Below, piece after piece: positions 1-58,671 of a stretch of DNA of 64,000 nt. Position 1 is the first letter of the stretch. Every line of letters begins with the position of its first letter. A program made the translations under genes and the position numbers. The notes below the pieces were generated by a model. The model did no database searches and was not told where the DNA came from. It worked only from the letters and a program-made list of their open reading frames with translations. Source of the DNA: Mogibacterium diversum (GTDB lineage Bacteria > Bacillota > Clostridia > Peptostreptococcales > Anaerovoracaceae); the NCBI RefSeq assembly GCF_938028775.1, contig NZ_CALIZG010000024.1, positions 129,672-193,671 on the forward strand, given 5' to 3'.

Positions 1-673
1 TACATTTTTCATATCGCTCTTCTTAGTTCTATTTTTTGTGATCGGACTATACCGTAATAGAGACGTACTCGCCCCACCAAAGCTTGATCGCGGAGTAATT
101 TTCATCGATCCTGGTCATGGTGGACATGACCCAGGTTCTCAAACCAAGTCTCGAAAAGAAAAAGACGATACGCTTCGTATAGCACTACAAATAAAAAAAG
201 AACTTAACAAGAAAAATTTTAAGGTCTACCTAACTCGTGAGAATGATAGCTTTACCGAGAGGATTAAAATTGGAAAAATGGCTAACAGAAAAAAAGCCAA
301 GCTTATGGTCTCAATTCATAGAAACAAAGCCGGAGATCCTAGAGCTCAAGGTGTAGAGGTCTTTCTTCCAAAGGATGATAATCCCAAAAGCCGATATCTC
401 GGCAAACAGATTATGAAGCAGCTGCACGATGAAGGCTTTGCGAAAAGACGCGTGCGTTCAGGAACACTCGTTAGCGAAAACAACGAGTACGACGAACTCA
501 GTATCAATAAAATGCCTTCTTGCCTAGTTGAGATTGGTTTTATCAGCAATAAGCACGATAACAAGTTATTTGACAAGAACTTGAAAGGGAATGCAAAAGC
601 CGTAGCAGATGCGATTGAAAAGACTTATTCTCATTACTACGAGAAAGATAAGAAGTCTAAGAAAGACAAATAG
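1..673 (+). CDS. N-acetylmuramoyl-L-alanine amidase, CwlD-like (5' end outside the window)
   Basis: The reading frame is open from position 2 through a hydrophobic stretch (FFISLFLVLFF). The Amidase_3 motif IFIDPGHGGHDPG is present, and the C-terminal tail is Lys-rich. The listed ORF begins at an internal GTG at 38. Confidence 0.75.
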   Translation, partial: TFFISLFLVLFFVIGLYRNRDVLAPPKLDRGVIFIDPGHGGHDPGSQTKSRKEKDDTLRIALQIKKELNKKNFKVYLTRENDSFTERIKIGKMANRKKAKLMVSIHRNKAGDPRAQGVEVFLPKDDNPKSRYLGKQIMKQLHDEGFAKRRVRSGTLVSENNEYDELSINKMPSCLVEIGFISNKHDNKLFDKNLKGNAKAVADAIEKTYSHYYEKDKKSKKDK

Positions 674-678
674 AAAGC

Positions 679-715
679 AAAGAACTCGATTCTGCTGAAT
701 CGAGTTCTTTTTTAT
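679..715. terminator. Bidirectional intrinsic terminator shared by the convergent amidase and proC genes
   Basis: A perfect 14-bp inverted repeat AAAGAACTCGATTC / GAATCGAGTTCTTT with a 4-nt loop, followed by a T6 run on the plus strand and an A/T-rich flank on the minus strand. Confidence 0.7.
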
Positions 716-781
716 GCAACGATATTCTACGCATCTATATGTCAATGTTAGTACCAGCTAGATATTTTTGTGAATCGAGCT

Positions 782-1585
782 CTAACCTCTCATAGCCGCT
801 GATTTCTCTGTAGCTGCATTGGCACCTTCGATTACTGCGCTTCTGAAGTTGTTTGCTTCGAGTGTACGAACAGCCGCGATAGTAGTTCCTGCTGGTGAGC
901 ACACCATATCCTTAAGTTCACCCGGATGCTTGCCAGTTTCCATAACCATCTTAGCCGCACCATATACTGTCTGTGCAGCGAATTCATAGGCCTGTCTTCT
1001 AGGCATGCCTCCAACCACTGCCGCATCAGCAAGAGCCTCTATGAATAGGAATACGTAAGCTGGTCCACTGCCACTAATTCCAGTGACTACGTCAAATAGA
1101 TTTTCTGGTATAATTTCAGCCTTTCCAAAGGCAGACAGGATACTAAGAGTAGTCTTAGTTTCTTCTTCACTTACGAACTCATTTGGGCAAGCTGCCGACA
1201 TGCCTTCACCAACCTGAGCTGGTGTATTTGGCATTACGCGAACGAGTTTTACGTTTTTGTCACCGAAAGCTTTACCAAGATAGTCTAGTGTCACACCTGC
1301 TCCAATCGAGATGAACACGTGATTTTCCTTTACATGATCCTTTATTCCCTCGATTACCGGTGCATAATACTGCGGTTTTACAGTTAAGAATACGTAGTCA
1401 CATTTTTCAAGTACATCTAGATTATTGTCTGTAACCTCTACTCCATTCTGTTCCTTAGTTTTAGTTCTTCCAAACTCAGTTGGATCTGCACCGATGATAT
1501 CTTCAGGTTTGCAGACTCCAGCGCTGATGATACCTCCCATCATCGCATTCGCCATAACCCCTGTGCCTATAAAGCCTATTTTCAT
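782..1585 (-). CDS. proC: Pyrroline-5-carboxylate reductase
   Basis: 267 aa with an N-terminal Rossmann motif (MKIGFIGTGVMA); length and architecture match P5C reductase. It lies immediately downstream of the glycyl radical enzyme. Confidence 0.85.
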   Translation of the reverse strand: MKIGFIGTGVMANAMMGGIISAGVCKPEDIIGADPTEFGRTKTKEQNGVEVTDNNLDVLEKCDYVFLTVKPQYYAPVIEGIKDHVKENHVFISIGAGVTLDYLGKAFGDKNVKLVRVMPNTPAQVGEGMSAACPNEFVSEEETKTTLSILSAFGKAEIIPENLFDVVTGISGSGPAYVFLFIEALADAAVVGGMPRRQAYEFAAQTVYGAAKMVMETGKHPGELKDMVCSPAGTTIAAVRTLEANNFRSAVIEGANAATEKSAAMRG

Positions 1586-1631
1586 TTCTGCCTCCTAACG
1601 CACGCAAATACTATAAGTAAAGTGATATTAG

Positions 1632-1661
1632 CTGGATTGGCGCAGTCTCACGCCAATCCAG
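1632..1661. terminator. Stem-loop between hypD and proC, candidate attenuator or weak terminator
   Basis: A perfect 11-bp inverted repeat CTGGATTGGCG / CGCCAATCCAG with an 8-nt loop. Both flanks are only moderately U-rich. Confidence 0.3.
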
Positions 1662-1751
1662 TTAAGGTGTAATTATTTAGAATACACTGCGCATAGTCGC
1701 TTCATGTATTTATTATACATCGAAATTGCTTCTATACACGGTTTATCCCTC

Positions 1752-4127
1752 TTAGCTGAAGGATTGCTCAGTTCTATTGATAATCTCATCCTGAAGCGGC
1801 TTATCGAGGTTACGGAAGAAGTCGCTGTATCCAGCTACTCTTACGATTAGATCCTTGTATTCCTCAGGATTCTTCTGCGCCTCGATTAAAGTTGCTCTAT
1901 CTATAATATTGAACTGAATGTGGTGTCCATCCATAGCGAAGTATGAACGAACAAGGTCAGCCATGTGAGCTAGTCCCTCTTCACCAGCCACTACATCAGG
2001 TGTAAACTTCTGGTTTAGAAGAGTACCACTTGTTGCGAGGTGATCCATCTTAGCGCAGGACTTGATTACAGCTGTAGGACCGTTTACATCGGCAGCCTTC
2101 TCTGGTGAAATTCCCTCAGATACTGGTTTATGTGCCTTACGTCCATTTGGAGTTGCAAGGATAACATCACCGAAGTATACGTGGCAGGTCGTAGGCAGCA
2201 TGTCGATTCCGTACTTTCCGCCCTTCATATTTGGTCTGCCAACGATTGTATCGTGATATAGGTCAAAGATCTGCTTCATAACATCATCAGCATAGTCATC
2301 ATCATTTCCGTACTTAGGAGTCTTCTCAGTTACGAGGCTATAGATATAGTCGTATCCTTCAAAGTTGTGCTCCATAGCTTCGATGAGCTCGTCCATAGTG
2401 AAGTTCTTCTCATCAAATACATTATACTTAACAGATGTTAGGCAGTCTGTAACTGTTCCGATTCCCACACCCTGGATGTAGTTTGTGTTGTAGCGAGCAC
2501 CACCAGCATTGTAGTCCTTAGCATTTGAGATACAATCGTTAGTTACTACAGAAAGTAGAGGTGCTGGCATGAACTCAGCATAGATTCTCTCAATGATGTT
2601 GTTACCGTATATCTTGATGTTTACGAAGTACTCTAGCTGCTTCTTAAATGCATCCCATAACTCCTCGTAGTTCTTAAAATCCTTAGCATAACCTAGCTTT
2701 AGACCTAGCTGCTTGCCAGACACCTGATCATATCCGTTGAACAGTGTCATCTGGAATATCTTAGGAATGTTCATATAACCTGTAAGGATATATGCTTCAC
2801 TTCCCCATGCTCCAGTCTCAACACATCCAGAAGAACCGCCGCGACGAGCATCTTCGAGTGTCTTCCCTGCATTTATCAGCTCCATAATCTGAGCTTCTGT
2901 ATTATAGAATGCTGGCTGTCCCCAACCCTTTCTTGAAATCTCACAAGCTCTCCTTAGGAATCTCTGAGGAGTCTTCTTACTGATTGTTACGTTTGAGTTA
3001 GGCTGTACAAGCTTCATATCATCCATGCAGTCAAGGATTAGATAGCTAACTGCGTTAACACCGTTCTCTCCAGTTGGCGTAACTCCACCAGTGTTGATGT
3101 TAGCGAAGTCTGTGTATGTTGCGCTCTCCTTGAGTGTAATTCCTACCTTTACTGGAGCTGGCTGATTATAGAACTTAACCCATAGGCACTCTAGAAGCTC
3201 AAGAGCTTTCTCATCATCGAGTATGCCCGCTTCAGTATCTGCTTCATAGTACTTGATGAGGTGCTGGTCCATTCTGCCAGGGCTGAATGCATCCCATGGA
3301 TTGAGCTCAGTTGTAACTGCCAGGTGTGTAAACCAGTATAGCTGGATTGCCTGCCAGTAAGTCTGTGGTGCGTGTGCAGGAACGACTTCGAGGTTCTTAG
3401 CAATCTGCAAAATCTCAGCCTTTCTAACTTGATTTGTCTCTGCTTCAGCCTTCTCGAGCGCTAGCTTGTGGTATCTCTCACCGAGGATGATTACTGCGTC
3501 GCAGCAGATATCCATAGCCTTTAGTTCTTCGTTCTTATCATAAGCTTCAGGATCGTTCATCCAATCTAGCTTATCCATCGTTTCCTTAATTTTAGCCTTA
3601 TAATCCATGTATCCAGTAGTGAATACCTGCTCTCCACCGCAAGTGTGTCCAGGACCTCTCTGCTCCATAAACTCTGTGAATACACCTGCTTCGTAGCACT
3701 CATGCCACTCTGGCGTCATCGATGCTAGGATTTTCTCTCGGATAGTTCTGCCTTCCCAGAATGGGATGATTTCCTTCTTCTGAAGCTCTCTATCTTCTAC
3801 TGTAGTGTGGAATGAAACGAGCTTTCTGTCGCTCATTACAATCATATCTTCTTCACTGTGGCAGCATAGTTCAGGAAATGTAGGTGACGCCTGAGGGTCC
3901 TTACCTTTCTCACCAACGATAAGCTCTCCATCTCCAAAGTAAAGCGTCTTCTTGGAGAAATACTCTTTGAGAACCATAGCTCTCATTACAGGGATTGAAT
4001 ACTTTCCATCGTTCTCTCTGTAGAAGTCTGTCTCAATCTTAGCTCTTTCGAGATCGATGTGTACCGGTGTATTTACACTTATATCTCTTAACTTCTGAAT
4101 CCTCTCATTCATACCATGTGTTGCCAT
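1752..4127 (-). CDS. hypD: Glycyl radical enzyme, trans-4-hydroxy-L-proline dehydratase-like
   Basis: 791 aa in the PFL-like fold. The C-terminus carries the glycyl radical motif (IVRVAGYSDFF) and there is a GCVETG active-site loop. It is flanked by a dedicated activase and proC, which is the genomic signature of HypD. Confidence 0.65.
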   Translation of the reverse strand: MATHGMNERIQKLRDISVNTPVHIDLERAKIETDFYRENDGKYSIPVMRAMVLKEYFSKKTLYFGDGELIVGEKGKDPQASPTFPELCCHSEEDMIVMSDRKLVSFHTTVEDRELQKKEIIPFWEGRTIREKILASMTPEWHECYEAGVFTEFMEQRGPGHTCGGEQVFTTGYMDYKAKIKETMDKLDWMNDPEAYDKNEELKAMDICCDAVIILGERYHKLALEKAEAETNQVRKAEILQIAKNLEVVPAHAPQTYWQAIQLYWFTHLAVTTELNPWDAFSPGRMDQHLIKYYEADTEAGILDDEKALELLECLWVKFYNQPAPVKVGITLKESATYTDFANINTGGVTPTGENGVNAVSYLILDCMDDMKLVQPNSNVTISKKTPQRFLRRACEISRKGWGQPAFYNTEAQIMELINAGKTLEDARRGGSSGCVETGAWGSEAYILTGYMNIPKIFQMTLFNGYDQVSGKQLGLKLGYAKDFKNYEELWDAFKKQLEYFVNIKIYGNNIIERIYAEFMPAPLLSVVTNDCISNAKDYNAGGARYNTNYIQGVGIGTVTDCLTSVKYNVFDEKNFTMDELIEAMEHNFEGYDYIYSLVTEKTPKYGNDDDYADDVMKQIFDLYHDTIVGRPNMKGGKYGIDMLPTTCHVYFGDVILATPNGRKAHKPVSEGISPEKAADVNGPTAVIKSCAKMDHLATSGTLLNQKFTPDVVAGEEGLAHMADLVRSYFAMDGHHIQFNIIDRATLIEAQKNPEEYKDLIVRVAGYSDFFRNLDKPLQDEIINRTEQSFS

Positions 4128-4129
4128 TG

Positions 4130-5038
4130 CTATCCTCCTATCTTGGTGTTAATAAAACCAGCTTTTATAAATAGTTCAGCGAACTTTTCCATCTCTTCCT
4201 TGAAAGGTGCATGCAGTTCACGACCCTCATACACCATTCCAATCTTCGAATACTTCGGAACACCTGCGTCGTGATAAGGTAAAAGGTTGATTTTAGCAGG
4301 ATGTATTCCGTTATCTTGCAGGAATTTTATAGTATCCTGCATGTTTTTCTCATTACCATTAACTTCTTTGATAACCGGGATTCTTACGTAGATCCTTGCT
4401 CCGTCCTTAGAAAGTCTTGCGAGATTGCCTAGTATCTTCTCGTTGCTAACTCCAGTGTATTTCTTATGGAGTTCATCATCCATGCACTTGAGATCGTATA
4501 AGAACGTATCTGTGTATGGAAGGATTTTGCTTAGTCTCTCATATGGAACATATCCGCATGTATCGATAAAAAGCGAAATCCCATTGCGTTTTAGTTCCTT
4601 AGCTATAGCGAGCAGATATTCTATATCCATCATCATCACTTCGCCGCCTGAGAGTGTTACGCCACCTCCCGACTCTTCGTAGAACATGAGATCTTTCATC
4701 AGCTCTTTTACAAGTGCCTTTGGTTCGTAATCTTTGCCCATTACCCTTCTAGCAGAGCTTGGACACATCTTGCCGCACTTGTCGCAGCGATTGCATTTGT
4801 TAGAATCCGTAAATGCCTTTCCGTTTACGATACTGATTGCTTCAGCGTGACAAGCTCCTATGCAGGAACCGCACCCTACGCACTTCTCGCTGTCGAACTC
4901 AACCTCTGGATTGTAGCACTGTGTCTCCGGATTATGACACCAAGTGCAGTGAAGCGGACAGCCTTTAAAGAATACGGTAGTTCTGATGCCGTCTCCGTCA
5001 TGTATTGAAAACTTCTGGATGTTAGTAATTGCTTTCAT
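4130..5038 (-). CDS. Glycyl-radical enzyme activating enzyme (radical SAM)
   Basis: 302 aa with a CPLHCTWCHNPE (CxxxCxxC) motif and two ferredoxin-like Cys clusters. It sits directly upstream of the glycyl radical enzyme on the same strand. Confidence 0.85.
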   Translation of the reverse strand: MKAITNIQKFSIHDGDGIRTTVFFKGCPLHCTWCHNPETQCYNPEVEFDSEKCVGCGSCIGACHAEAISIVNGKAFTDSNKCNRCDKCGKMCPSSARRVMGKDYEPKALVKELMKDLMFYEESGGGVTLSGGEVMMMDIEYLLAIAKELKRNGISLFIDTCGYVPYERLSKILPYTDTFLYDLKCMDDELHKKYTGVSNEKILGNLARLSKDGARIYVRIPVIKEVNGNEKNMQDTIKFLQDNGIHPAKINLLPYHDAGVPKYSKIGMVYEGRELHAPFKEEMEKFAELFIKAGFINTKIGG

Positions 5039-5261
5039 GTCTCAATCACCCTTTAATATTTTTTAGACTGCGTTCTAAATTTAATATAACCATATCATTG
5101 TGATAAAACCTTGTCAATCTGTTTTGTTAATTATTTTTCGGAATTTTGCAAAAAAAGATGGATACATTCCACTTGATAAAATCATGTTTGAATATATCCC
5201 TTGTTTATTTATACCACCTTTATAAAAATAAGTGGCATACTATCCTTATTAATCTATAATT

Positions 5262-5393
5262 CTAGTTGATTTCTATACTGTCCAGTGCTTCATGTAGGCT
5301 CTTCAACTCTAGATAGTTTCGCACTACAAATACTAGACATACTATATTAACAAGTAAAAGTACACATAAAACAATTTTTCGCTTGGTGCTCAT
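5262..5393 (-). CDS. Small single-pass membrane protein, cassette A 'z' (43 aa)
   Basis: Not in the ORF track because it is shorter than 60 aa. An ATG is preceded by a strong AAGGGAGG Shine-Dalgarno. The product MSTKRKIVLCVLLLVNIVCLVFVVRNYLELKSLHEALDSIEIN is a paralog of the product of 7847..7978. Confidence 0.5.
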   Translation of the reverse strand: MSTKRKIVLCVLLLVNIVCLVFVVRNYLELKSLHEALDSIEIN

Positions 5394-5441
5394 TTTCTTA
5401 AACCTCCCTTTTATCAAAATTCAATCTGCACACAATATTAG

Positions 5442-5861
5442 TTAGTACTCCCACTGATATCCTGCCTCTGTCATATCCTTACAAATTTTATCTCTAATAT
5501 CCGAGGGGCTATGTTGCTCTTTAATTTTGTTTTTAGCACGATAATCCTTTTGAAATTCAATCAGATCCTTCGCTTTATTACCTGTCTCCTTAATTGATAT
5601 ATCATACCCTTCACTATTAAGGTATTCTACAATTGCATTTGTGTTATGACCCTTTTTGATACTATAAGTGGCGTCGTCATCGATTATATCAAAATCTACT
5701 AGTTTACAATCAACAACTCTCAAGTTCATACTTATTTTCATTTGAATTAACCACTTTAAATTAGCTATCCCAATGTTTATTTTATACGTAGAATAACATG
5801 AAAAGAGAGATACCAATATAGAAACTAATACAATTATATTGAACCTATTTTTTTTATCCAT
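5442..5861 (-). CDS. N-terminally anchored small protein, family Y (copy 1)
   Basis: 139 aa with an N-terminal TM/signal-anchor and the motifs GHNTNAIVEYLNSEGY and C-terminal EAGYQWEY. It is paralogous to the products of 8029..8451, 6194..6619 and 6763..7194. Confidence 0.6.
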   Translation of the reverse strand: MDKKNRFNIIVLVSILVSLFSCYSTYKINIGIANLKWLIQMKISMNLRVVDCKLVDFDIIDDDATYSIKKGHNTNAIVEYLNSEGYDISIKETGNKAKDLIEFQKDYRAKNKIKEQHSPSDIRDKICKDMTEAGYQWEY

Positions 5862-6216
5862 TTATATCCCCCATTATTAATTGATTCTTAATTTCATCTC
5901 TAACTTCCACAGTTGAATATAGTCCTACATGCTCACCACATTCTCTTAAAGTTTCAATATTATCTTTCATTGAGCCTTTTAATGGATAGTCTTTATTATC
6001 CACATATATCATAATCGCTTCTGTATTTGGTTCAAGTCTTATGACGCACTTATCATTAACCTGAGTGACGTATGAATCTGTTGTTGCTAATTCAACTTTA
6101 ATCATAAAGTTATACATAGAGAGCTGAAGTGATGACATATTTTTCTTCTCGGTATCTGCAAACAGCCCAATCGCTTCCACAGAGATTACTTTTTTAGTAT
6201 CCGTAGTCCCAACCAT
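5854..6216 (-). CDS. Small cytoplasmic protein, family X (copy 1)
   Basis: 120 aa sharing the block TTDSYVTQVNDKCVI with the product of 8439..8744. Its stop overlaps the Shine-Dalgarno and start of the downstream Y gene. Confidence 0.55.
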   Translation of the reverse strand: MVGTTDTKKVISVEAIGLFADTEKKNMSSLQLSMYNFMIKVELATTDSYVTQVNDKCVIRLEPNTEAIMIYVDNKDYPLKGSMKDNIETLRECGEHVGLYSTVEVRDEIKNQLIMGDING

Positions 6217-6619
6217 ACCCTTTCTTTTTCATATCATCTATTATTGTCAGGTGACACTCATAAGCATTATGAACTTTTAAATTCATTTTGTCGCAATAAT
6301 CGTCAATCATCTTTATAATTTTCTTTCTGTTCCTTTGAGCTTCTGTATTATCTACACAATCTTCAAATTTAACTTTTGTTTTCTCAATTTCCTCATATGT
6401 GACCAAATACCCTTCATCATTAAGATATCTTATGATTACATCTGTATTTCTTCCTTTTTGCCAAGTAAGTATATTATTTTTTTTAGTAGTATCTAAATCA
6501 AAAACACGGCTAATTTTAAAATTTTCATTTTTCCATTCTTCCTTTAATTTTTCGCTTTGTTTTTTGTGTGCCCCATACTCTTTTACAATTATTACTGAAG
6601 AAGCACATACACTTATCAA
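6194..6619 (-). CDS. Family Y paralog (copy 2), probable 5' frameshift or alternative start
   Basis: Carries the GRNTDVIIRYLNDEGY motif and a C-terminal GYGWDYGY. An ATG at 6653 followed by an A5 run is out of frame by 1 nt. Removing one A yields a canonical signal peptide MKTKIIFIILILISVCASS. Confidence 0.55.
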   Translation of the reverse strand: MISVCASSVIIVKEYGAHKKQSEKLKEEWKNENFKISRVFDLDTTKKNNILTWQKGRNTDVIIRYLNDEGYLVTYEEIEKTKVKFEDCVDNTEAQRNRKKIIKMIDDYCDKMNLKVHNAYECHLTIIDDMKKKGYGWDYGY

Positions 6620-6762
6620 AATTAGTATTATAAAAATAATCTTAGTTTTTCATCAGAATCCACACTTTCCTCAACAAGTATTAATTTATTATTTTGATTA
6701 CCCATATTTTCACCTATATTTTCGTATAGGTTTATAAATAATAAATTAACCTTGTATAAAAT

Positions 6763-7194
6763 TTATTTTGTCTGCCAATCTAACTGAGAAACCAGATAGT
6801 CTTGTAAAGCACCATTCCCAATATCTCCTAAACTCTCGACTTCTTTATACTTTTTTATAGCTTCAAAAATCTTTTTTCTACTTTCTAACGCCTTATTGTT
6901 TCCTTTTATATCGCTATAGAAAACTTTTGCACTTTGTATTTCTTGAAATGTTATTATGCAACCTTTTTTGTTAAATTCCTCTATAACAGTATCTGTGTTT
7001 CTACCTTTGCTCCAATTGTCATTCTCATCAACTTCCAGATCAAAAACGAGTTTCATCTCGGCATTTTTTCTTATTACGTTTAGCTCTTCCTTTTTATATT
7101 GGTCATGATAGTGTTTTGCTGCAAATGTAAAAAAAATTGAACTTACTACTACTAAAACTATAATATTATTTTTCTTTTTCTTTAATGCATCCAT
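6763..7194 (-). CDS. Family Y paralog (copy 3)
   Basis: 143 aa with an N-terminal TM (IIVLVVVSSIFFTFAA) and the GRNTDTVIEEFNKKGC motif. Confidence 0.55.
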   Translation of the reverse strand: MDALKKKKNNIIVLVVVSSIFFTFAAKHYHDQYKKEELNVIRKNAEMKLVFDLEVDENDNWSKGRNTDTVIEEFNKKGCIITFQEIQSAKVFYSDIKGNNKALESRKKIFEAIKKYKEVESLGDIGNGALQDYLVSQLDWQTK

Positions 7195-7268
7195 GGCTTA
7201 GCATCCCTTCATGCAATTTTTTCTTTAATATAATATTGTAGTGCACCCATACCGATATCTCCCGTCTT

Positions 7269-7532
7269 TTATATTTTTTTATACTTATCTATTACTTCAC
7301 TGACTTTATCCTGGGAATAAACTATATCATTCACTGTTATATTGCTGCCTGTAGAATTATTAATATGTTCTATTATCATTTGTGTATTCTTACATTTTAC
7401 AAATTTTGTATTGAATTCAGCAACATTAGAGGATTCAATCATATGCAAATCAAAAATAACACTATTTTCAATTTCCCTGCATCTATCATAGGCGCGTTCT
7501 GTTGTAATGTTATCATTACATTTATCAATCAA
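7269..7532 (-). CDS. Small hypothetical protein (87 aa, no signal peptide)
   Basis: An ORF within the AT-rich island on the same strand as the neighbouring island genes; no recognisable domain. Confidence 0.4.
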   Translation of the reverse strand: MIDKCNDNITTERAYDRCREIENSVIFDLHMIESSNVAEFNTKFVKCKNTQMIIEHINNSTGSNITVNDIVYSQDKVSEVIDKYKKI

Positions 7533-7846
7533 TGTTTCATCATACTTGGAAATATTAGTACCTTTGAAGCCCCACCTTCTGCGTGCTAAAGGCTTTTCTC
7601 TAAAATTTTCATATATATACTATATTTGGCTTCTCCTACAAGCTTCTTTTTATTATATTTGAGATATCATATATTTCTTTTATAGTATCATTATCGACTT
7701 TTATTTTATCCTCTACTTGAATTAATGCAGTACTAAAAAACGACGGATATATCCTCATTCATAAATAATGTTTGAATATATCCCTTACTAATTTTTTGCC
7801 ATCATTCTAAAAAGGAATATTGTACTATCCTTATTAAGCTTAGATC

Positions 7847-7978
7847 CTATTTGATTTTTAAACTGTCTAATACTCTCTCAGCAGTCTGCAATTCTAGATA
7901 CTGATGCACCATAACTGTTATACATATTACATTTACTAGCAAAAACAGACATAACAATATCTTTTGTTTCCTATCCAT
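7847..7978 (-). CDS. Small single-pass membrane protein, cassette B 'z' (43 aa from the internal ATG; the ORF-track start is at 8041)
   Basis: MDRKQKILLCLFLLVNVICITVMVHQYLELQTAERVLDSLKIK is a paralog of the product of 5262..5393. A GGGAG Shine-Dalgarno lies upstream of the internal ATG. Confidence 0.5.
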   Translation of the reverse strand: MDRKQKILLCLFLLVNVICITVMVHQYLELQTAERVLDSLKIK

Positions 7979-8028
7979 TCTTCTAATGCTCCCATCCAGA
8001 AATAACAAGTGACTATCCATATTGCCAC

Positions 8029-8451
8029 TCAATAAATCCACTGATATCCTGCTTCTGTCATATCCTCACGTATCTTATCTCTAATATATAACCATTTATC
8101 CATTCCCTTTATATTTTTTTTAGAACGATAATATTTTTGAAAGTCAATCAGCTGTTTTGCTTTATTATTTTTTTCTTTAATTGATATGTGATAACCTTCA
8201 CTGTTTAGATATTTTATAATCTCATTAGTGTTACGTCCCGTTTTTACACTGTAGATGATCTCTCCATTGATTATTTCAAACTCTGAAACTTGACAGTCAA
8301 GGCTCAATAAATACATATTCATGTCTAATTTGATTAAGAGTTTTATATTAAATATAGCATTACTCATTCTAAGTATGGAGTAGCACGAATAAATGGATAC
8401 AAATATCGAAACTAATACAATTAAAGTAAATCTTTTATTTAATCTATCCAC
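8029..8451 (-). CDS. Family Y paralog (copy 4, cassette B)
   Basis: 140 aa with a GTG start preceded by AAGGAGG. Carries the GRNTNEIIKYLNSEGY motif and a C-terminal EAGYQWIY. Close paralog of the product of 5442..5861. Confidence 0.6.
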   Translation of the reverse strand: MDRLNKRFTLIVLVSIFVSIYSCYSILRMSNAIFNIKLLIKLDMNMYLLSLDCQVSEFEIINGEIIYSVKTGRNTNEIIKYLNSEGYHISIKEKNNKAKQLIDFQKYYRSKKNIKGMDKWLYIRDKIREDMTEAGYQWIY

Positions 8452-8744
8452 TTGTAGCCTCCTTCGCTAAGCTCTTTTATAATACATTCGTCATTAACCT
8501 GCGTAATATATGAATCAGTTGTTTTTGTCACTTCAATTCTTGTTAAATTTGTTGCAAGAGTTCTATTTTTATAACTATTATTCATATCCTCAGCAAAATC
8601 CATAACGACAGATAGACCTGGTATAGGAATAAAATCTTGAGCAACATCAATTCCTATCCTTGCCATTGATCGTTTTAATATAAAGTTATTCTCATTTATA
8701 TAATTTTTCGATGCCCTTGTATGATATTGTACTACCCCCATCAA
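8439..8744 (-). CDS. Family X paralog (copy 2, cassette B)
   Basis: 101 aa with the shared block TTDSYITQVNDECII and a C-terminal GGYKWID. TTG/ATG start. Confidence 0.5.
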   Translation of the reverse strand: MMGVVQYHTRASKNYINENNFILKRSMARIGIDVAQDFIPIPGLSVVMDFAEDMNNSYKNRTLATNLTRIEVTKTTDSYITQVNDECIIKELSEGGYKWID

Positions 8745-8947
8745 TACCTTTTCCGAAAGTATGCACTATAATGTCTTTTGTAAAGTTTACTGCTCTAGTC
8801 GAACTATGAGCAACACCATTTTCATATTCCCAAGCTCCATATTCATATCTATAGGTATGAATATGGATTGAATATCCATTATGGTATTTAGCTTGTCCGA
8901 TTCAGATTTTTTTCATAACTATCGTCTATACTTATATTCTTACTCAT
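8745..8947 (-). pseudogene. Gene remnant: short ORF with a strong ribosome-binding site, followed by a start-less open frame
   Basis: AAAGGAGAGAGT-ATG gives MSKNISIDDSYEKNLNRTS and then a stop just after an A7 run. In the +1 frame there is a 66-codon open stretch (IGQAKYHNGYSIHIHTYRYEYGAWEYENGVAHSSTRAVNFTKDIIVHTFGKGIDGG…) with no start codon. Confidence 0.35.
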
Positions 8948-8997
8948 ACTCTCTCCTTTACGATACCACGTCTTATATCAAATAAATGCAAGTCTAG

Positions 8998-9095
8998 TAA
9001 TTGTAATATAGTGTTTAAGTAACACCGTTCATTTAAACTCTTAATGCATAATTACAATTACTTTATCATAATATGCAATCTAATTGTATTAATTA
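8998..9095. promoter_or_regulatory. Candidate operator/promoter region of the island operon: three copies of a TAATTGTA(A/T)T motif, including a 10-bp inverted repeat
   Basis: TAATTGTAAT at 8998-9007 is inverted to ATTACAATTA at 9051-9060, and TAATTGTATTAATTA occurs at 9081-9095. These lie in a 300-bp AT-rich non-coding stretch between the TetR terminator and the first island gene. Confidence 0.3.
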
Positions 9096-9183
9096 TATAT
9101 TTTTAAATAACAGAGCATATAAAATCCTATATAAAATTTAACTATTCGATTTTTGATTCCATTACATCAAACCATATATTACA

Positions 9184-9210
9184 TAAAAATGACGCCTAAA
9201 AAGGCGTCTT
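9184..9210 (-). terminator. Intrinsic terminator of the TetR gene
   Basis: GACGCC-TAAAAA-GGCGTC hairpin followed on the minus strand by ATTTTTAT. Confidence 0.6.
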
Positions 9211-9264
9211 CAAAACATCTATTGTTTACTAACTTTAATAAGTTTACTATTTAAAAACTAGATA

Positions 9265-9861
9265 TTATTTCACCCTAAACTCCCCAAAGAATAGTGGCAT
9301 ATACTTCTTGCTATATTCAGCTAGCGAAAATGCACCATTCTTCATGCACCAGTCAGAAACGAGTGCACGCTCAAGTATTACGTAATTATTAACAAGTTCA
9401 GGAACACTGAATTCTATAGTTATCTCCCCGTTTTCCTGTCCTCGCTTGAGCAATTCACCGAGGAGCTTAAAATAATATCTGTCCTTGTCGAGCAGCTTAC
9501 TAGCAGCAGTATTGGTTAGCTGACTTGCATACATATTGCCTAGAAGCTCATGATCGATATGCTTCTCAATAAACGTATGAGTTTCAAAATTGAGGATCAT
9601 CAGCGTATCAAACACACTAGTGTCCGCTGGGATTCCCTTCATAATTTCTCTATACTTGTTATCGAAAACAGTAGCGAGCGTATCAAGCAAACTCTCTTTC
9701 CCTTTAAAGTAATAGTAAAAAGAGCCTCTCGCCACCTGCGCTTTCTCGATGATGTCGTTCATCGTTGTTGCTTCGTAGCCCTTTTCTTCGAATAGTTCCC
9801 ACGACACTTCTATAATTCGTTCTTTGAGACTTTGTTTCTTTCCCATATTCCTTCCTTTCAT
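9265..9861 (-). CDS. TetR/AcrR family transcriptional regulator
   Basis: 198 aa with an N-terminal TetR helix-turn-helix (TTMNDIIEKAQVARGSFYYYFKGKESLL). Confidence 0.85.
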   Translation of the reverse strand: MKGRNMGKKQSLKERIIEVSWELFEEKGYEATTMNDIIEKAQVARGSFYYYFKGKESLLDTLATVFDNKYREIMKGIPADTSVFDTLMILNFETHTFIEKHIDHELLGNMYASQLTNTAASKLLDKDRYYFKLLGELLKRGQENGEITIEFSVPELVNNYVILERALVSDWCMKNGAFSLAEYSKKYMPLFFGEFRVK

Positions 9862-9992
9862 TTTAACCCGCGTATATTCTACTCGATTTTACACAATCGG
9901 TAAAGGGGATTTGCCACGAATTTCATATAATACAAAAGGTATTTCTTATATGAAAAGGCTCGGATACATCCGAGCCTTTGTAGTTTCTAGTA

Positions 9993-11192
9993 TTAATTTG
10001 TATAGTTATCAAAATAGCCCTGAATGTGTACTACAGGAGTTCCCTTATCACCAGAACCACTTGTTAGGTCGCAAAGAGAACCGATGAGGTCAGTCAGTCT
10101 ACGAGGTGTAGTTCCCTCTGTCTCCATCTTGCCAACAAGGTTGTCATCCTTCTCCTTGATTCTAGCAGAAATAGCCTCCCTTAGTGCCTCTCCGCTTAAG
10201 TCTTTAAAATCATTATCCGCTAAGTACTTGAGCTTAAGTTCATTAGGTGTACCCTCGAGTCCAGGTGTGTATGCTGGTGATACTACAGGGTCTGCGAGCT
10301 CCCAAATCTTACCAACCGGATCCTTAAATGCTCCGTCACCATATACTAGGACCTCTACACACTTACCTGTTTTATCGAGTATTGACCTCTGGATACCTAG
10401 TACAACATCTTCGCAGCTCTCAGGGAAAAGTTTCACGCTGTCTTCTGTACTCTTGTTGGAGCCAAGAAGTCCGTACTTGCTGTTGAAGCCACTGCCATCA
10501 ACTGGAGCATTTAGAATCTCATCCATACCAAGCACTGTTGCACCAGCGTCCTTTAGTATGCGGCGAGTTCTCTTCCTAGTGTGAATGTCACAGTTAATAA
10601 CTTTGTCGGTGTAGTTCAAAATCTCTGTCGCATGATTAGCAAGAACAATCTCCACTTCAGCGCCAGCTGCTTCTATAACCTCTCCGTAGTACGCGAGGTA
10701 ATCTACTCCTGTAAATGGATGCTTATTTTCTCCGAAAAGTTCACGGTACTCCTCAAGAGACATAACCTTTGAATAAGGATCAATTCCTGCCTCATCAAGC
10801 TGATCCTCTGTTAAAAGCTGATTACCCACTTCATCTCTTGGGAATGAAAGCATCAAAACTATTTTCTTAGCAGCCATCGATATACCGCGTAGACAAATCG
10901 CAAATCTATTTCTCGATAGAATTGGGAAAATTACTCCAATCGTATCACTTCCAAGCTTAGCCTTAACGTCCTTTGCAATTGCCCCAACGCTAGCGTAGTT
11001 GCCTTGACTTCTAGCAACTACCGATTCTGTTACAGCAACAATGTCTCTGTCCCTGATTTCATACCCTTCAGCCTCTGCAGCTTCAAGTACAGAGTTAACC
11101 ACAACACTTGAGATATCATCGCCTTCACGAATAATAGGACATCTAATTCCTCTTGATATCGTGCCTACTTTTCTTTCCATTGTCATCTCCAT
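9993..11192 (-). CDS. CofE-like (F420-0:gamma-glutamyl ligase family fold) protein, function uncertain
   Basis: 399 aa. The N-terminus (ISRGIRCPIIREGDDI…DRDIVAVTESVVARSQGNY) resembles PF01996. A C-terminal extension of about 150 aa has no assignment. Confidence 0.4.
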   Translation of the reverse strand: MEMTMERKVGTISRGIRCPIIREGDDISSVVVNSVLEAAEAEGYEIRDRDIVAVTESVVARSQGNYASVGAIAKDVKAKLGSDTIGVIFPILSRNRFAICLRGISMAAKKIVLMLSFPRDEVGNQLLTEDQLDEAGIDPYSKVMSLEEYRELFGENKHPFTGVDYLAYYGEVIEAAGAEVEIVLANHATEILNYTDKVINCDIHTRKRTRRILKDAGATVLGMDEILNAPVDGSGFNSKYGLLGSNKSTEDSVKLFPESCEDVVLGIQRSILDKTGKCVEVLVYGDGAFKDPVGKIWELADPVVSPAYTPGLEGTPNELKLKYLADNDFKDLSGEALREAISARIKEKDDNLVGKMETEGTTPRRLTDLIGSLCDLTSGSGDKGTPVVHIQGYFDNYTN

Positions 11193-11420
11193 CTATCTAG
11201 GTATTCTAGATTTCATTATTTCTCATATATAGCTTATCTGTTAAACACTTAAATTTCAATAATTAATAAAAGATTTGGAAAAATTATCATTAATGTTGGC
11301 TTTCTTAATCATTTATAAGCCAAATTTACGAACTTTTTTACCAAATAAGCGTGATAAAATACGGGAACTGTAATGAATTCTAATATAATTTATACACACT
11401 CATCGCTAGATATTTTCATA

Positions 11421-11462
11421 AAAATACCCGCCAACAGGTAAGGTCGTTAGCGGGTTTTCTGA
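11421..11462. terminator. Bidirectional intrinsic terminator downstream of the GltD-like gene
   Basis: Arms ACCCGCCAAC / GTTAGCGGGT pair 9 of 10 with a 10-nt loop. An A5 run lies on the left and TTTTCT on the right. Confidence 0.55.
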
Positions 11463-11549
11463 ACAATCTTATACATCAGCATGTACTCAATTATCCATAA
11501 GTATGAGGTAATGTATCTATATGTAGGTTCTTTCGAACCTGGACATAGC

Positions 11550-12953
11550 TTATTTATTAGCCTTAAGCTTCTCATCTATCGCTGCTGCTGCAGTCTTTCC
11601 AGCACCCATAGCTAGGATTACAGTAGCCGCACCAGTTACAGCGTCTCCTCCTGCATATACGTATTCTTTGCTCGACTCCATAGTAGCCTCATCAACTATG
11701 ATTCCGCCCCAGCTCTGTGTATCAAGCCCTGGAGTCGTCGCTCTAAGCAGAGGATTTGGACTTGTTCCTACAGAGATAATAACCGAATCAACATCGATGA
11801 CATAGTTTGAACCCTCGATAGGAACTGGCCTACGTCTTCCAGATGCATCTGGCTCTCCTAGCTCCTGCTCAACAACTTCAATACCTGTTACATGTCCATT
11901 CTCATCTCCGAGTATCTTAGACGGATTATTGAGGAACTTGAAGATAATTCCTTCTTCCTTAGCGTGATGAACCTCCTCAAGTCTAGCTGGGCACTCTGCT
12001 TCGCTTCTTCTGTATACGATATACACCTCGTCAGCGCCTAGTCTCTTCGCAGTCCTTGCAGCATCCATAGCTACATTTCCTGCTCCTACTACAGCTACCT
12101 TCTTACCAACCTTAACAGGTGTAGGAACCTCTGGGAACTTAAAGGACTTCATAAGATTAACTCTTGTGAGGAACTCATTAGCCGAATAAACACCGAGAAG
12201 ATTCTCTCCAGGGATGTTAAGGAACTTAGGTAATCCTGCTCCACTTCCAATAAATACAGCCTTATATCCATCAGCCATTAGTTCATCAACGGTAATCGAC
12301 TTACCTACAATGACATTTGTATCAATTTTTACACCGAGTTTCTCAACATTTTCAATTTCCTTTGCCACTAATGACTTAGGAAGTCTAAATTCAGGAATAC
12401 CGTATACTAGCACCCCGCCTGGCTTATGAAGCGCTTCGAATACAGTTACTTCATAACCTCTTCTAGCAAGCTCTCCTGCACAAGTTATTCCGGAAGGGCC
12501 ACAGCCGATAACTGCAACCTTAATTCCATTCTTTTCACCAACTGGTTCAGATGCATCACCTTTAGCCATATGGTAGTCTGCAACGAATCTTTCCATACGG
12601 CCGATTCCAACTGGTTCTCCCTTGATACCACGAACGCACCTACCCTCGCACTGATCCTCCTGTGGACATACTCGTCCGCAAATTGCTGGAAGTGCATTCT
12701 CTCTTGTGATAACTTCATATGCTGCATCGAAGTCACCTTCTGCAACCTTCTCTATAAACTCTGGAATTGGAACATTTACAGGACATCCACCTACACAAGG
12801 CTTGTGCTTGCAATGTAGACATCTCTGAGCTTCTTCTATAGCCATCTCTGGAGTATATCCAAGTGCAACTTCATCAAAGTTTCTATTTCTTACGTTAGGA
12901 TCCTGTTCAGGCATCTTGACCTTCTCAAGACTCATATTTCTATTAATAGCCAT
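11550..12953 (-). CDS. GltD-family NADPH-dependent oxidoreductase (NfnB/SudA-like large subunit)
   Basis: 467 aa with N-terminal Cys clusters (CLHCKHKPCVGGCP, CGRVCP) and two dinucleotide-binding GxGxxG motifs (IGCGPSG, VVGAGNVAMD). Confidence 0.8.
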   Translation of the reverse strand: MAINRNMSLEKVKMPEQDPNVRNRNFDEVALGYTPEMAIEEAQRCLHCKHKPCVGGCPVNVPIPEFIEKVAEGDFDAAYEVITRENALPAICGRVCPQEDQCEGRCVRGIKGEPVGIGRMERFVADYHMAKGDASEPVGEKNGIKVAVIGCGPSGITCAGELARRGYEVTVFEALHKPGGVLVYGIPEFRLPKSLVAKEIENVEKLGVKIDTNVIVGKSITVDELMADGYKAVFIGSGAGLPKFLNIPGENLLGVYSANEFLTRVNLMKSFKFPEVPTPVKVGKKVAVVGAGNVAMDAARTAKRLGADEVYIVYRRSEAECPARLEEVHHAKEEGIIFKFLNNPSKILGDENGHVTGIEVVEQELGEPDASGRRRPVPIEGSNYVIDVDSVIISVGTSPNPLLRATTPGLDTQSWGGIIVDEATMESSKEYVYAGGDAVTGAATVILAMGAGKTAAAAIDEKLKANK

Positions 12954-12954
12954 C

Positions 12955-13791
12955 TTAACCCCTTCCTATCTTACATGCGTGGTCGTTCATCTCCTTCTCC
13001 TTATCCTTGAAGAAGTTCTGACGCTCCATGCATTCCTTGAAATCTACTTTAAATCCATCAAAGTCTGGTCCGTCAACACATGCGAACTTCATCTCACCGT
13101 CAACTGTTACACGACAGCATCCGCACATACCTGTACCATCAATCATAAGAGGGTTAAGCGAAACCATTGTATGAAGACCTGCTGGCTTGGTCACATTAAC
13201 TACACCATTCATCATGCCTAGCGACCCTATAGCAATGCATTCTTCGTATTCTTCGCCTTTATCTAGAAGCTCCTGAAGCACAACTGTAACAAAGCCTTTT
13301 TCTCCGTATGAACCATCATCTGTACAGACATAAATGTTGTCACAGAATTCTCTAAACTGCTCCTCAAGAATTACAAATTCCTTAGATCTTCCGCCCAGAA
13401 TAACATCCACCTTAACGCCCATCTCCGCTAATTTCTTAAGCTGAGGATAAATTGGTGCAGCACCGAGCCCTCCAGCAACGCCGATGATCTTTTTGTCGGT
13501 ATATTTAAGAGGTGATGGGACACCTAGCGGTCCAACAAAGTCCTCAATATAATCCCCTTCTTCTTTGGTTGCTAACAGATTTGAGGAATATCCAACCTTC
13601 TGATATATGATTGTAACAGTTTCCTTATCTCTGTCGAAATCGGCAATCGTGAGAGGAATCCTCTCTCCATCCTCATCAACTCTGAGAATGATGAACTGAC
13701 CTGCCTCACACTTTCTAGCGACAAATGGGGCATGAATCTCCATAAGTCCAAGTGCCGGGTTCAAGATTTTTTTACTAACTATCTTGTACAT
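12955..13791 (-). CDS. Ferredoxin-NADP+ reductase-like small subunit (NfnA/SudB/PyrK-like)
   Basis: 278 aa in the FAD/NAD-binding PyrK fold with a C-terminal Cys cluster (CGCCRV…CVDGP). It abuts the GltD-like gene at a 2-nt spacing. Confidence 0.75.
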   Translation of the reverse strand: MYKIVSKKILNPALGLMEIHAPFVARKCEAGQFIILRVDEDGERIPLTIADFDRDKETVTIIYQKVGYSSNLLATKEEGDYIEDFVGPLGVPSPLKYTDKKIIGVAGGLGAAPIYPQLKKLAEMGVKVDVILGGRSKEFVILEEQFREFCDNIYVCTDDGSYGEKGFVTVVLQELLDKGEEYEECIAIGSLGMMNGVVNVTKPAGLHTMVSLNPLMIDGTGMCGCCRVTVDGEMKFACVDGPDFDGFKVDFKECMERQNFFKDKEKEMNDHACKIGRG

Positions 13792-18219: not shown

Positions 18220-19152
18220 TTATTTGTGAATAACCGTTCCCGTCTCTCCGTTTATACCTTCTTTAGCTTTCTCTAGCAGTGTGATAAGCGCATTTCTGCC
18301 TTCTCCAGATTCTGCAAAGCGGATAGCCGCTTCAACCTTAGGTAGCATTGAACCTTTTGCAAACTGCTCCTCAGCAATGTACTGATTAGCCTTATCAATT
18401 GAAAGATCCGATAACCACTCCTGGTTCTCCTTGCCGAAGTTGATGGCAACCTTTTCTACAGCTGTAAGGATTACGAGATAATCAGCCCCAATCTCTCTTG
18501 CAAGAAGACTCGAAGCGTTATCTTTATCTATTACAGCCTCTGCTCCAACAAGTTTACCACCTTCATCAAATACTGGAATTCCGCCACCTCCACAAGTGAT
18601 TACAACATGACCTGCTTCAGCAAGTGTTTTGATAGTTCCTAGCTCGCAGATTCTTAATGGCATTGGTGATGCAACCACCTTGCGGTAACCTCTGCCAGAG
18701 TCTTCAACTACTGAGACACCCTGTGCAACAATCTTGTCTGCTTCTTCCTTAGTCATAAAGCTTCCAATCGGTTTAGTTGGATTCTTAAATGCTTCATCAG
18801 CAGGATCAACGAGTGTCTGTGAGATAATCGATGATACCTTCTTATCCATTCCTCTCTTCTTTAGCTCGTATTTTATTGCGTTCTGAAGGTCGATTGCAAT
18901 GTATCCCTGTGACATAGCAACACTTGTAGGTAGCGGAACCGCACCATATCCATGGTGTGTAGCTGCAAGAGCATCCATTGCATTCTGAATCATTCCAACC
19001 TGAGGTCCATTCCCGTGTGTGACTATCAGGTCATGACCTTCAGCAATCAAATCAACGATTACTTTCGCAGTATGAGCAACAGCTTCACGCTGCTCATCAA
19101 CTGTGTTACCGAGTGCGTTTCCGCCTAGTGCGATGACAATCTTCTTTGCCAT
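18220..19152 (-). CDS. arcC: Carbamate kinase
   Basis: 310 aa with N-terminal MAKKIVIALGGNALG in the amino-acid kinase fold. Length and motifs are typical of ArcC/YbcF. Confidence 0.85.
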   Translation of the reverse strand: MAKKIVIALGGNALGNTVDEQREAVAHTAKVIVDLIAEGHDLIVTHGNGPQVGMIQNAMDALAATHHGYGAVPLPTSVAMSQGYIAIDLQNAIKYELKKRGMDKKVSSIISQTLVDPADEAFKNPTKPIGSFMTKEEADKIVAQGVSVVEDSGRGYRKVVASPMPLRICELGTIKTLAEAGHVVITCGGGGIPVFDEGGKLVGAEAVIDKDNASSLLAREIGADYLVILTAVEKVAINFGKENQEWLSDLSIDKANQYIAEEQFAKGSMLPKVEAAIRFAESGEGRNALITLLEKAKEGINGETGTVIHK

Positions 19153-19243
19153 ATTTATATCCCCCTTGATATCGTCTAATAATAGTAACGACCTGATTTC
19201 TCAGGCCGCTACGTTGTTTTGTCTTATAAGATTTCTATACGTT

Positions 19244-22249: not shown

Positions 22250-22268
22250 TTATTCTCTCCCTTTTATA

Positions 22269-23321: not shown

Positions 23322-23359
23322 TTTTTTTCCTCCATGAACCTGTATATACAAATTCTATC

Positions 23360-23397
23360 TATAAAAACAGGTCCGCATCTATGACGCGAACCTGTTA
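23360..23397 (-). terminator. Candidate internal attenuator/terminator between allE and allD
   Basis: An imperfect hairpin ACAGGTTCGCG…GCGGACCTGT on the minus strand followed by TTTTTAT. Confidence 0.35.
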
Positions 23398-23423
23398 CCA
23401 ACAATTCTTAATATTGCTTAAAC

Positions 23424-56986: not shown

Positions 56987-57241
56987 CTAAAATCGGAGTG
57001 TGAATAATTCACACTCCGATACAGCCATTAACACTGTGAGAGATAGTGCATAGAACATGATATTGTAGTCTATATTAAGCGTAGTCTGTATAAGTCTAGC
57101 AATTCCTGAAATTCCGCCATAGGTTAACCCATTCGGAATCATTACTGCGACAATTCCGAAAGCTCCGATAGCACATGAAGAAATCACTATAACAATATCG
57201 AGCATCACCCTATTAATATTGGTTTTCTGAGCCTTTTTCAC
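56987..57241 (-). pseudogene. Truncated N-terminal remnant of a second YitT-family gene
   Basis: 84 aa matching only the first two TM helices of YitT proteins (LTYGGISGIARLIQ). It ends 54 nt before the convergent intact yitT, and its start overlaps the methyltransferase stop (ATGA). Confidence 0.5.
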
Positions 57242-58560: not shown

Positions 58561-58671
58561 CTTAACCGTCCTCTTTAGCGACCATGTCATCAACTGATGA
58601 TTGGATATATCTGTTAATTATAAAACATTGATATTAATATGTCTATTTGAAGAGTTCAAAATAAACAATGC

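Follow-up and report, generated by a model that had tools for sequence, protein, structure and literature searches.

What is encoded by a 4-kb, AT-rich island of small unannotated genes in Mogibacterium diversum, and why is it kept? The window, by which we mean the whole stretch of 64,000 nucleotides (nt) analysed from contig NZ_CALIZG010000024.1, carries this island at positions 5268-9260, where the GC content is 0.291, compared with 0.435 at 1000-5000 and 0.419 at 9265-13500. The genes at one edge encode pyrroline-5-carboxylate reductase, a glycyl-radical enzyme and the activase of that enzyme, and those at the opposite edge a TetR regulator and, after it, an F420-ligase-like protein. The minus strand of the island holds seven stop-to-stop frames of at least 100 amino acids (aa), where 500 shuffled sequences gave a mean of 0.016 and a maximum of 1. 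No open reading frame (ORF) of the island scores above threshold against Pfam, PHROGs, NCBIfam or PADLOC. An earlier note on this DNA described ten short minus-strand ORFs in a 4-kb AT-rich island; the composition bears this out, and all ten were located again on that strand. Comparison with complete loci in other Mogibacterium contigs indicates that the island is probably a decayed LXG-type polymorphic-toxin locus, and that any function it still has would be that of an orphan immunity island.

The complete loci define the parts (L numbers denote the contigs or loci compared, and P numbers denote proteins). In L011, genes for proteins of 91, 101 and 552 aa are followed by Ya and z, then by a CTb fragment, Yb, Yc, a CTa fragment, Ya and z, and by more cassettes. 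The 552-aa protein is the presumed toxin, CTa and CTb are two of its alternative C-termini, Y is a family of small proteins with types Ya, Yb and Yc, and z is a 43-aa protein. L010 has a similar order, with a toxin of 514 aa and with Y and z directly after it. A Y gene always lies 3' of a toxin end, with overlapping stop and start codons, in the order CTa to Ya or CTb to Yb to Yc, and z always follows a Ya gene and no other Y class. The orphan cassettes 3' of the main pair consist of truncated toxin C-termini, each with a Y.

The constant part of the toxin ends in the junction motif KKVISVEAIGLFADTEKKNMSPLQLS[ML]Y, and the orphan toxin fragments start at or after it. One N-terminus with its junction carries either CTa (552 aa in L011, 514 aa in L010) or CTb (P0065, 577 aa, and P0064), and the two classes are about 25% identical after the junction. 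A distant relative, P0069, bears a third C-terminus. Alternative C-termini on a constant N-terminus, together with displaced C-terminal cassettes, give the protein the build of a polymorphic toxin. The earlier note had proposed an orphan immunity array of a polymorphic-toxin system and had suggested looking for homologs downstream of LXG/WXG100-type toxins. Such homologs are found in L010 and L011, where Y and z follow a Lap1-toxin operon.

Aligned with these loci, the island of the window resolves into the following features:

8948-9190, minus strand: 5' region of the island, an AT-rich leader downstream of the TetR terminator (9208-9191)
9092-9065, minus strand: promoter-like site in the leader
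8958-8953, minus strand: Shine-Dalgarno sequence AAGGAG in the leader, ahead of the Lap1 stub
8888-8947, minus strand: Lap1-like (TIGR04197/DUF3130) stub of 19 codons, MSKNISIDDSYEKNLNRTS and a stop, placed by its similarity to the start of the L011 91-aa protein
8439-8901, minus strand: CTa relic including ORF X2 (8439-8744), placed by tblastn at 82% and 51% identity
8029-8451, minus strand: Y4 (type Ya), 140 aa, intact by ORF and homolog lengths, with a GTG start overlapping the end of X2
7847-7978, minus strand: z2, 43-aa single-pass membrane protein, intact by ORF and homologs
7185-7758, minus strand: CTb relic over three frames, including the singleton ORF 7269-7532, placed by tblastn at 89-91% identity
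7636-7758 (a 40-aa ORF), 7535-7666 and 7185-7538, minus strand: the CTb pieces in their three frames
6763-7194, minus strand: Y3 (type Yb), 143 aa, intact by ORF and by BLASTP to CTb
6194-6653, minus strand: Y2 (type Yc), anchor out of frame with ATG 6653, read directly in the sequence
5854-6216, minus strand: X1, junction motif fused to the end of CTa, placed by tblastn and alignments
5442-5861, minus strand: Y1 (type Ya), 139 aa, intact by ORF, with the close homolog P0040
5262-5393, minus strand: z1, 43-aa single-pass membrane protein, intact, with Shine-Dalgarno sequence AGGGAGG upstream
5160-5261, minus strand: cassette tail 3' of z1, repeated after z2 (7763-7846), placed by repeat analysis

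A module of X, Y, z and tail, about 900 nt long, is present twice at an offset of about 2587 nt (5179-6085 and 7763-8523, about 75% identity).

All toxin-related genes of the window are broken. The Lap1 stub matches the start of the L011 91-aa protein (MSKNIKLDSSYDDFLKK...) and then runs out of frame into toxin codon ~347; the same stub is present in L016. Positions 8901-9099 are 72% identical to the leader and the start of the Lap1-like gene of a complete locus (L017 7518-7714), so the island began as a complete operon and then lost the stretch from Lap1 codon ~15 to mid-toxin. tblastn with the 552-aa toxin as query places residues 349-404 at 8901-8734 and residues 399-490, in a different frame, at 8750-8475, and about 50 aa of the Y-like domain have been deleted in frame from the X2 relic. 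When the out-of-frame sequence upstream of X2 is joined to X2 as a query, it retrieves covering proteins of 258-276 aa (P0047-P0052), which correspond to the C-terminal half of the L011 552-aa protein. L015 is without about 210 nt that the window has inside this CTa relic (window 8640-8850, L015 9812-9830), so the toxin remnant is still decaying between near-identical islands.

X1 and X2 have TDSY[VI]TQVND in common. X1 contains the junction motif KKVISVEAIGLFADTEKKNMSSLQLSMYN (residues 232-263 in the numbering of the 552-aa toxin) at 6195-6100, immediately followed by residues 467-546 at 6105-5869. It thus keeps the last ~80 residues of CTa after an internal deletion of about 200 aa, with its C-terminus changed to GDING instead of GGYKWI. 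In the third relic, CTb is split into three pieces in different frames, made up of the 40-aa ORF, the singleton and what follows as far as 7185; they are 89-91% identical to the 193-aa orphan form in L011 and to the full-length P0065. The paralogy that the earlier note saw among the island's proteins is real, but its X family and its separate singleton are toxin-gene fragments, and the singleton, as a part of CTb, bears the same core domain as Y. The note's statement that no toxin gene is present holds for intact genes only. For annotation, the "hypothetical" ORFs X1, X2 and the singleton are therefore gene fragments and not genes.

The immunity-like genes have fared differently: five of six are intact, against none of the three toxin relics, and no intact Lap1 is present. 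Y1, Y3, Y4, z1 and z2 have lengths equal to those of their homologs, and the three intact Y genes and both z genes, the two 43-aa single-pass proteins that the note had grouped as one family, retain ribosome-binding sites. Strong Shine-Dalgarno sequences within the 3' ends of upstream genes, from which the note had deduced translational coupling, can be read in the sequence. GGAGG at 8462-8458 precedes the Y4 GTG at 8451 inside the upstream gene, GGGGGA precedes the Y1 ATG at 5861, the Y3 ATG at 7194 sits within the end of the CTb reading frame, and starts overlap the stops of preceding genes. z2 becomes 64 aa if it is started at GTG 8041, as annotated in other contigs, and z reads as N-in/C-out in the membrane.

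Y proteins consist of an N-terminal membrane anchor preceded by basic residues and a domain of ~100 aa, as seen in Y4. Y1 and Y4 are 56% identical, Y2 and Y3 are 23-29% identical to Y1 and Y4, and all copies share an invariant G.NT...G core. The Y4 query retrieved only 46 homologs, which are 137-142 aa long and without annotation. DUF1310 was considered as a family for Y and rejected, as it matches Y3 alone (E 0.044) within the anchor and no other Y member. A further ORF of 219 aa, P0045 (L007 78-737, ERZ773027), has the first ~80 residues of a Ya protein ahead of a domain resembling HNH_3 homing endonucleases. Probably either the assembly is chimeric here or an endonuclease has inserted into an immunity gene, given its 974-nt contig, its coverage of 1.18 and a divergence point in the middle of the G.NT motif, and it was not used as evidence of a DNA-binding Y.

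The note had described all four Y copies as membrane-anchored, which holds for Y1, Y3 and Y4; in Y2 the anchor is out of frame. The soluble domain of Y2 is intact, but its longest ORF (TTG 6619; 6194-6619) is without the full anchor, and its maximum hydropathy is 0.92, compared with 1.9-3.4 in the other Y proteins. L011 has an intact form of 153/161 aa, of which only residues 16-153 are matched in the window. At the start of the gene (6640-6653), the length of an A-run right after the ATG has changed, giving ATGAAAAAC where L011 has MKKTK. Y2 is probably a pseudogene or a phase-variable gene, since a homopolymer at the start codon makes phase variation possible in place of plain decay.

Loss of the toxin with retention of Y has also occurred independently at another chromosomal site, next to hypE, in L016, L005 and P0039. 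L016 has a Lap1 stub straight before Ya, and L005 has a 70-aa toxin end followed by Ya and z. In P0039, P0038 and L016 (9824-10402), Lap1 and Ya are fused in a 193-aa ORF; here the toxin and the Lap2-like gene were lost in one event, independent of the window deletion. Y and z are kept intact beside broken toxin pieces in L014, L015, L016 and L005 as well. This asymmetry between toxin loss and Y retention, the position of Y behind the toxin and the matching of their classes are the grounds on which Y is taken for a putative immunity protein. Y3 is accordingly a putative immunity protein for CTb and Y4 for CTa, and Y1 is likewise a putative immunity protein.

The arrays at the hypE site all end with genes for a 136-aa acidic protein (MSYDLMVFEKAQAPNNKTEFIKWYENQ...) and a 61-aa HTH_3 regulator (L005 8696-9427; L010 12555-13283; L016 10853-11582), neither of which occurs in the window. 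The acidic protein has no family match. The two could be another immunity-type protein and a regulator of the locus.

The relation between toxin and Y goes beyond their order. The last 85-120 residues of the toxin are homologous to the downstream Y, class by class, an unexpected feature that the earlier note did not see. Alignment of the toxin tail with Y by hhalign gives a probability of 95.4% and E 1.8e-8 over 82 columns, and BLASTP gives E 3e-14 for CTb with Y3 and E 4e-7 for CTa with Y4. In tblastn the toxin query matches Y1 and Y4 (E 1e-6 and 5e-6) and the CTb orphan matches Y3 (E 3e-11). Y3 and the CTb C-terminus have GDIG.GALQDY...W in common. In the joint alignment an amphipathic segment of the toxin stands opposite the Y anchor, and D, G.NT and W are conserved in both. 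CTa and Ya align at 23-44 bits, compared with at most 23 for CTa and Yb, and CTb and Yb at 48-53 bits, compared with ~21 for CTb and Ya. Within the CTa subtypes, the cognate Ya subtype is no more similar than other Ya proteins, so the matching is claimed at the class level only. AlphaFold2 (AF2) gives a confident model for the Y-like part alone (residues 160-316, predicted local distance difference test score (pLDDT) 80-96), with helices, a beta-hairpin and three helices, and this model has no match among solved or viral structures.

This homology cuts both ways. Since Y is a membrane-tethered paralogue of the toxin tail, it may neutralise the toxin by pairing or competing with it. In such immunity by paralogy, Y would be a copy of the toxin's C-terminal module, made up of a hydrophobic helix, a beta-hairpin and three helices and tethered to the membrane, and it would pair with that module in a homotypic-like manner or occupy its membrane target. 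We regard this as a tentative and rather doubtful proposal. If true, it would be a dominant-negative mechanism of the holin/antiholin kind, and the co-variation of CTa with Ya and of CTb with Yb would be its specificity code. We know of no T7SS, T6SS or contact-dependent inhibition (CDI) toxin with such a dominant-negative immunity mechanism (T7SS and T6SS being type VII and type VI secretion systems). The homology is in any case a testable lead to a neutralisation mechanism for polymorphic toxins.

The same homology would also suit a locus that is toxin-derived but in which Y has a role other than immunity. Y could serve in docking or assembly, keeping the secreted protein on the surface of the cell that makes it, or in reception or adhesion, or as a chaperone of the toxin tail, and the arrays would diversify surface recognition and not toxin-antidote pairs. 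The class-by-class similarity of Y to the toxin tail fits such roles, and no toxin fold or catalytic motif was found. After a limited literature search, we also know of none among the characterised LXG, Rhs and CDI pairs whose immunity protein is a paralogue of the C-terminal module of its toxin, so Y may have another role. What argues for immunity is the standard toxin-immunity signature: the gene order, start/stop overlaps, pairs matched by class, orphan cassettes and a large gene lost more than once while Y stays. Moreover, Y is kept where the large gene is gone (the window, L005 and L016), where joint decay would be expected of partners. We consider a Y without immunity function unlikely.

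The assignment of the toxin to the LXG class rests on its neighbours and on a distant relative. The L011 91-aa protein passes TIGR04197 at 29.0 bits (cut-off 26; E 1e-6), matches Pfam DUF3130 weakly (E 0.085) and contains FKDLD, an FxxxD motif. TIGR04197/DUF3130 is Lap1, in which the FxxxD motif is required for LXG export, and the Lap1 and Lap2 genes are located upstream of LXG toxins (PMC9600955). In L011 and L010 a 101-aa Lap2-like gene is placed between the Lap1-like gene and the toxin; it is absent from the window. For the toxin N-terminus, an exhaustive HMMER/phmmer search of 1.84 billion representatives found only 10 relatives. Residues 1-183 match P0074 (E 1.4e-4), which passes the Pfam LXG model PF04740 (29.9 bits, cut-off 26.5) and has an unrelated C-terminus, DUF4474. 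P0069 matches the toxin at E 3e-22 and scores 16.8 bits for LXG, below the cut-off. Long helices are predicted for the first ~230 residues at low confidence; with a pLDDT of 38, the AF2 model of the N-terminus was set aside as unusable. The 552-aa toxin has no match among PDB sequences, and no part of the toxin N-terminus is left in the window. The toxin may thus be filed as divergent LXG-type, with the LXG domain itself supported transitively. It would be exported by a type VII system, and its target would be the envelope or membrane.

In the mechanism we propose, an intact operon supplies Lap1-like and Lap2-like targeting factors, then a toxin of 552-577 aa that would act at the cell envelope or membrane, then a class-matched, translationally coupled Y, sometimes with the 43-aa z, and orphan cassettes behind. 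In the window, the deletion has fused Lap1 codon ~15 to mid-toxin, and all remaining toxin pieces bear frameshifts or internal deletions. Y, possibly with z, may now protect the cell from the CTa and CTb toxins of neighbouring Mogibacterium strains, and neutralisation may run through the shared module, with Y pairing or competing with the toxin tail.

Several observations weigh against this account. The 552-aa and 577-aa toxins have no match to PF04740 even at E values up to 5, S-E-G stands where the LXG motif is expected, and the link to LXG through P0074 is transitive and weak. The 101-aa Lap2-like protein matches neither DUF3958 nor any other Pfam or NCBIfam family. Neither the 64-kb window nor any of the inspected flanks showed a gene for type VII machinery, whole genomes not having been scanned, and no literature report of type VII secretion or interbacterial toxins in Mogibacterium was found. 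Flanking charges leave the membrane orientation of Y undecided. Ratios of non-synonymous to synonymous substitution rates (dN/dS) on the island genes are uninterpretable, as near-identical genomes offer too few substitutions.

The distribution of the island speaks to whether it is more than debris. When 185,579 species genomes were scanned by pattern, four loci turned up, and all of them belong to Mogibacterium (M. pumilum ATCC 700696 and two metagenome-assembled genomes (MAGs)). One further Y homolog is labelled [Eubacterium] sulci; outside Mogibacterium the Y family is confined to close relatives. At the site between the hypD-activase and TetR genes, M. pumilum (L014) and a MAG (L015) are co-linear with the window. 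The earlier note had held that a fixed site with no toxin association would speak against its proposal; the island does occupy the same site in the three closest genomes, but its toxin link is direct. A second site lies between hypE and a DUF2207 gene (L001-L006, L009/L017, L010 and L016) and a third between rplL and rpoB (L011). All compared islands have a GC content of 0.29-0.31 in genomes of 0.39-0.46.

Two of these sites have further neighbours. Ahead of its Lap1-toxin operon, L011 (2224-4701) encodes an Rce1/CPBP-like intramembrane protease, of a kind frequently linked to bacteriocin immunity, and three multi-pass membrane proteins of 230/207, 161 and 182 aa that have no annotation. In L005, a Mogibacterium MAG (1-7239; GCA_019417565.1, DXVC01000053.1), part of a conjugative element replaces the hypE-side flank of the module of toxin end, Ya and z. 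This element comprises a type IV secretion system (T4SS) coupling protein, a Toprim/DUF3991 primase and DUF8208, and it ends in an IS30-like integrase (HTH_38 and rve). It abuts the module directly, which makes the site an integration hot spot.

The island of the window is 97-100% identical to those of M. pumilum and a MAG, and the flanks are 84-92% identical. Synonymous divergence is 0-0.05 in most island genes and ~0.10-0.13 in Y2, against 0.15-0.54 in the flanks. Relative to M. pumilum, the activase is 87% and TetR 86% identical (synonymous divergence, pS, 0.54 and 0.47), and Y4, z2, X1, X2 and Y3 are 98-100% identical (pS at most 0.03). A 200-nt identity profile has sharp steps, with breaks placed by alignment at ~5268, the end of z1, and at ~9320, in the 3' end of the TetR gene; the cassette tail after z1 forms the left end of this near-identical tract. 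The contrast in identity between island and flanks points to a recent exchange between lineages that are otherwise ~13% diverged, and the island thus appears, from sequence comparison, to have recently moved between Mogibacterium lineages by recombination. Cassette content varies, with M. pumilum having extra Yb/Yc copies in the place of the window's CTb relic. The window island neither contains nor adjoins a gene for an integrase, a transposase or conjugation, and it has no match among 50,697 phage and 72,556 plasmid records.

So recent an arrival could mean that the whole island is a non-functional relic, in which the Y and z frames have merely yet to decay. Its differences of 0-3% between genomes leave little time for decay, the start of Y2 has already been lost, and the ratio of non-synonymous to synonymous differences (pN/pS) ranges from 0.23 to 1.1 for Y1-Y4 on very few substitutions. 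The same short time has nevertheless broken every toxin piece, and five of the six Y/z genes keep their length, starts and ribosome-binding sites. The same pattern has arisen independently at the hypE site (L005 and L016), the Ya protein P0022 occurs in intact form on contigs from 65 blocks of the collection, and the spread of the island between lineages is hard to explain for useless DNA. We therefore judge a relic to be quite improbable, below even a Y without immunity function.

That the island is a housekeeping, envelope-stress (the note's alternative, for which no support was found), sporulation-type, phage or anti-phage module unrelated to toxins is very improbable: small membrane-anchored proteins, an AT-rich island and the lack of a toxin domain recognisable by Pfam would fit it, but Pfam, NCBIfam, PHROGs, PADLOC and the phage and plasmid records hold nothing to support it, the family is restricted to Mogibacterium and close relatives, and at all three chromosomal sites it is tied to the Lap1-toxin operon or its remnants.

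Two other regions of the window may be mentioned. An apparent ureide/oxamate catabolism cluster at 18220-24209, unrelated to the island, encodes a carbamate-kinase-like protein, a 1001-aa CoA-ligase/AllG fusion, an Ldh_2 dehydrogenase and a cupin. A 451-aa N6/N4 DNA methylase (PF01555) is encoded at 57238-58593.

Read as a decayed toxin locus with surviving immunity genes, the island extends the range of LXG-type toxin-immunity systems to the oral anaerobe Mogibacterium, and its toxin C-terminal region and immunity-like family have no match in current databases. The novelty lies in these two families, in the genus of the host, in the paralogy of toxin and immunity protein, and in a clean record of how the toxin was lost and the island spread. 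The locus offers a natural example in which a toxin is lost and its immunity genes are kept and spread between lineages, which bears on how members of oral communities survive their mutual weapons.

Among known systems, the closest counterpart is a T7SSb locus, lapC1-lapC2-telC-tipC of Streptococcus intermedius. It likewise starts with a pair of small helical genes, of which one is TIGR04197/DUF3130 with FxxxD, and continues with a large protein that has a helical N-terminus and a variable C-terminus and with a small downstream gene (PMC9600955; PMC10765036). The LXG toxin TelC has as its immunity protein TipC, which crosses the membrane once and faces outward, and like Y TipC combines a single membrane anchor with one domain; orphan toxin domains are found in the telC cluster, and telC-type loci also share the orphan toxin ends and extra immunity genes after the main pair (PMC9600955; PMC10765036). 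The Mogibacterium loci differ in that the toxin N-terminus fails Pfam LXG directly, the second small gene is without DUF3958, the C-terminus and Y belong to no described family, and Y is homologous to the toxin tail. The window has, in addition, lost its toxin and Lap genes.

In Staphylococcus aureus, the tsaI copies beside tspA and the DUF600/esaG copies are also tandem, diverged immunity paralogues away from the secretion locus, and these immunity genes also occur in strains without the matching toxin (PMC10765036). TsaI is polytopic and EsaG is cytoplasmic (SUKH), both unrelated to Y, and the Mogibacterium arrays differ in being interleaved with toxin fragments. The likeness to holin and antiholin is a mechanistic analogy only, in which the inhibitor is a homologue of the membrane-active protein that it blocks by hetero-association. 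There is no sequence relation, and nothing points to pores or oligomers formed by the Mogibacterium toxin. An antiholin is a homologue that inhibits its holin in this way.

Orphan CT/immunity cassettes of CdiA and Rhs toxins were reportedly described by Poole and colleagues in 2011. Their displaced C-termini also start at or after a conserved junction (VENN or PxxxxDPxGL), each with its cognate immunity gene. These systems and the acquired interbacterial defence (AID) islands of Bacteroidales (mentioned in PMC10470768) belong to another phylum and to type V (T5SS) or type VI secretion, compared with the type VII system presumed here, and the window island has no integrase or conjugative element and appears to have been exchanged by recombination, with one end in the TetR gene. 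The Bacteroidales AID islands carry immunity genes only, spread horizontally and protect cells that do not produce the toxins, as the window island may do.

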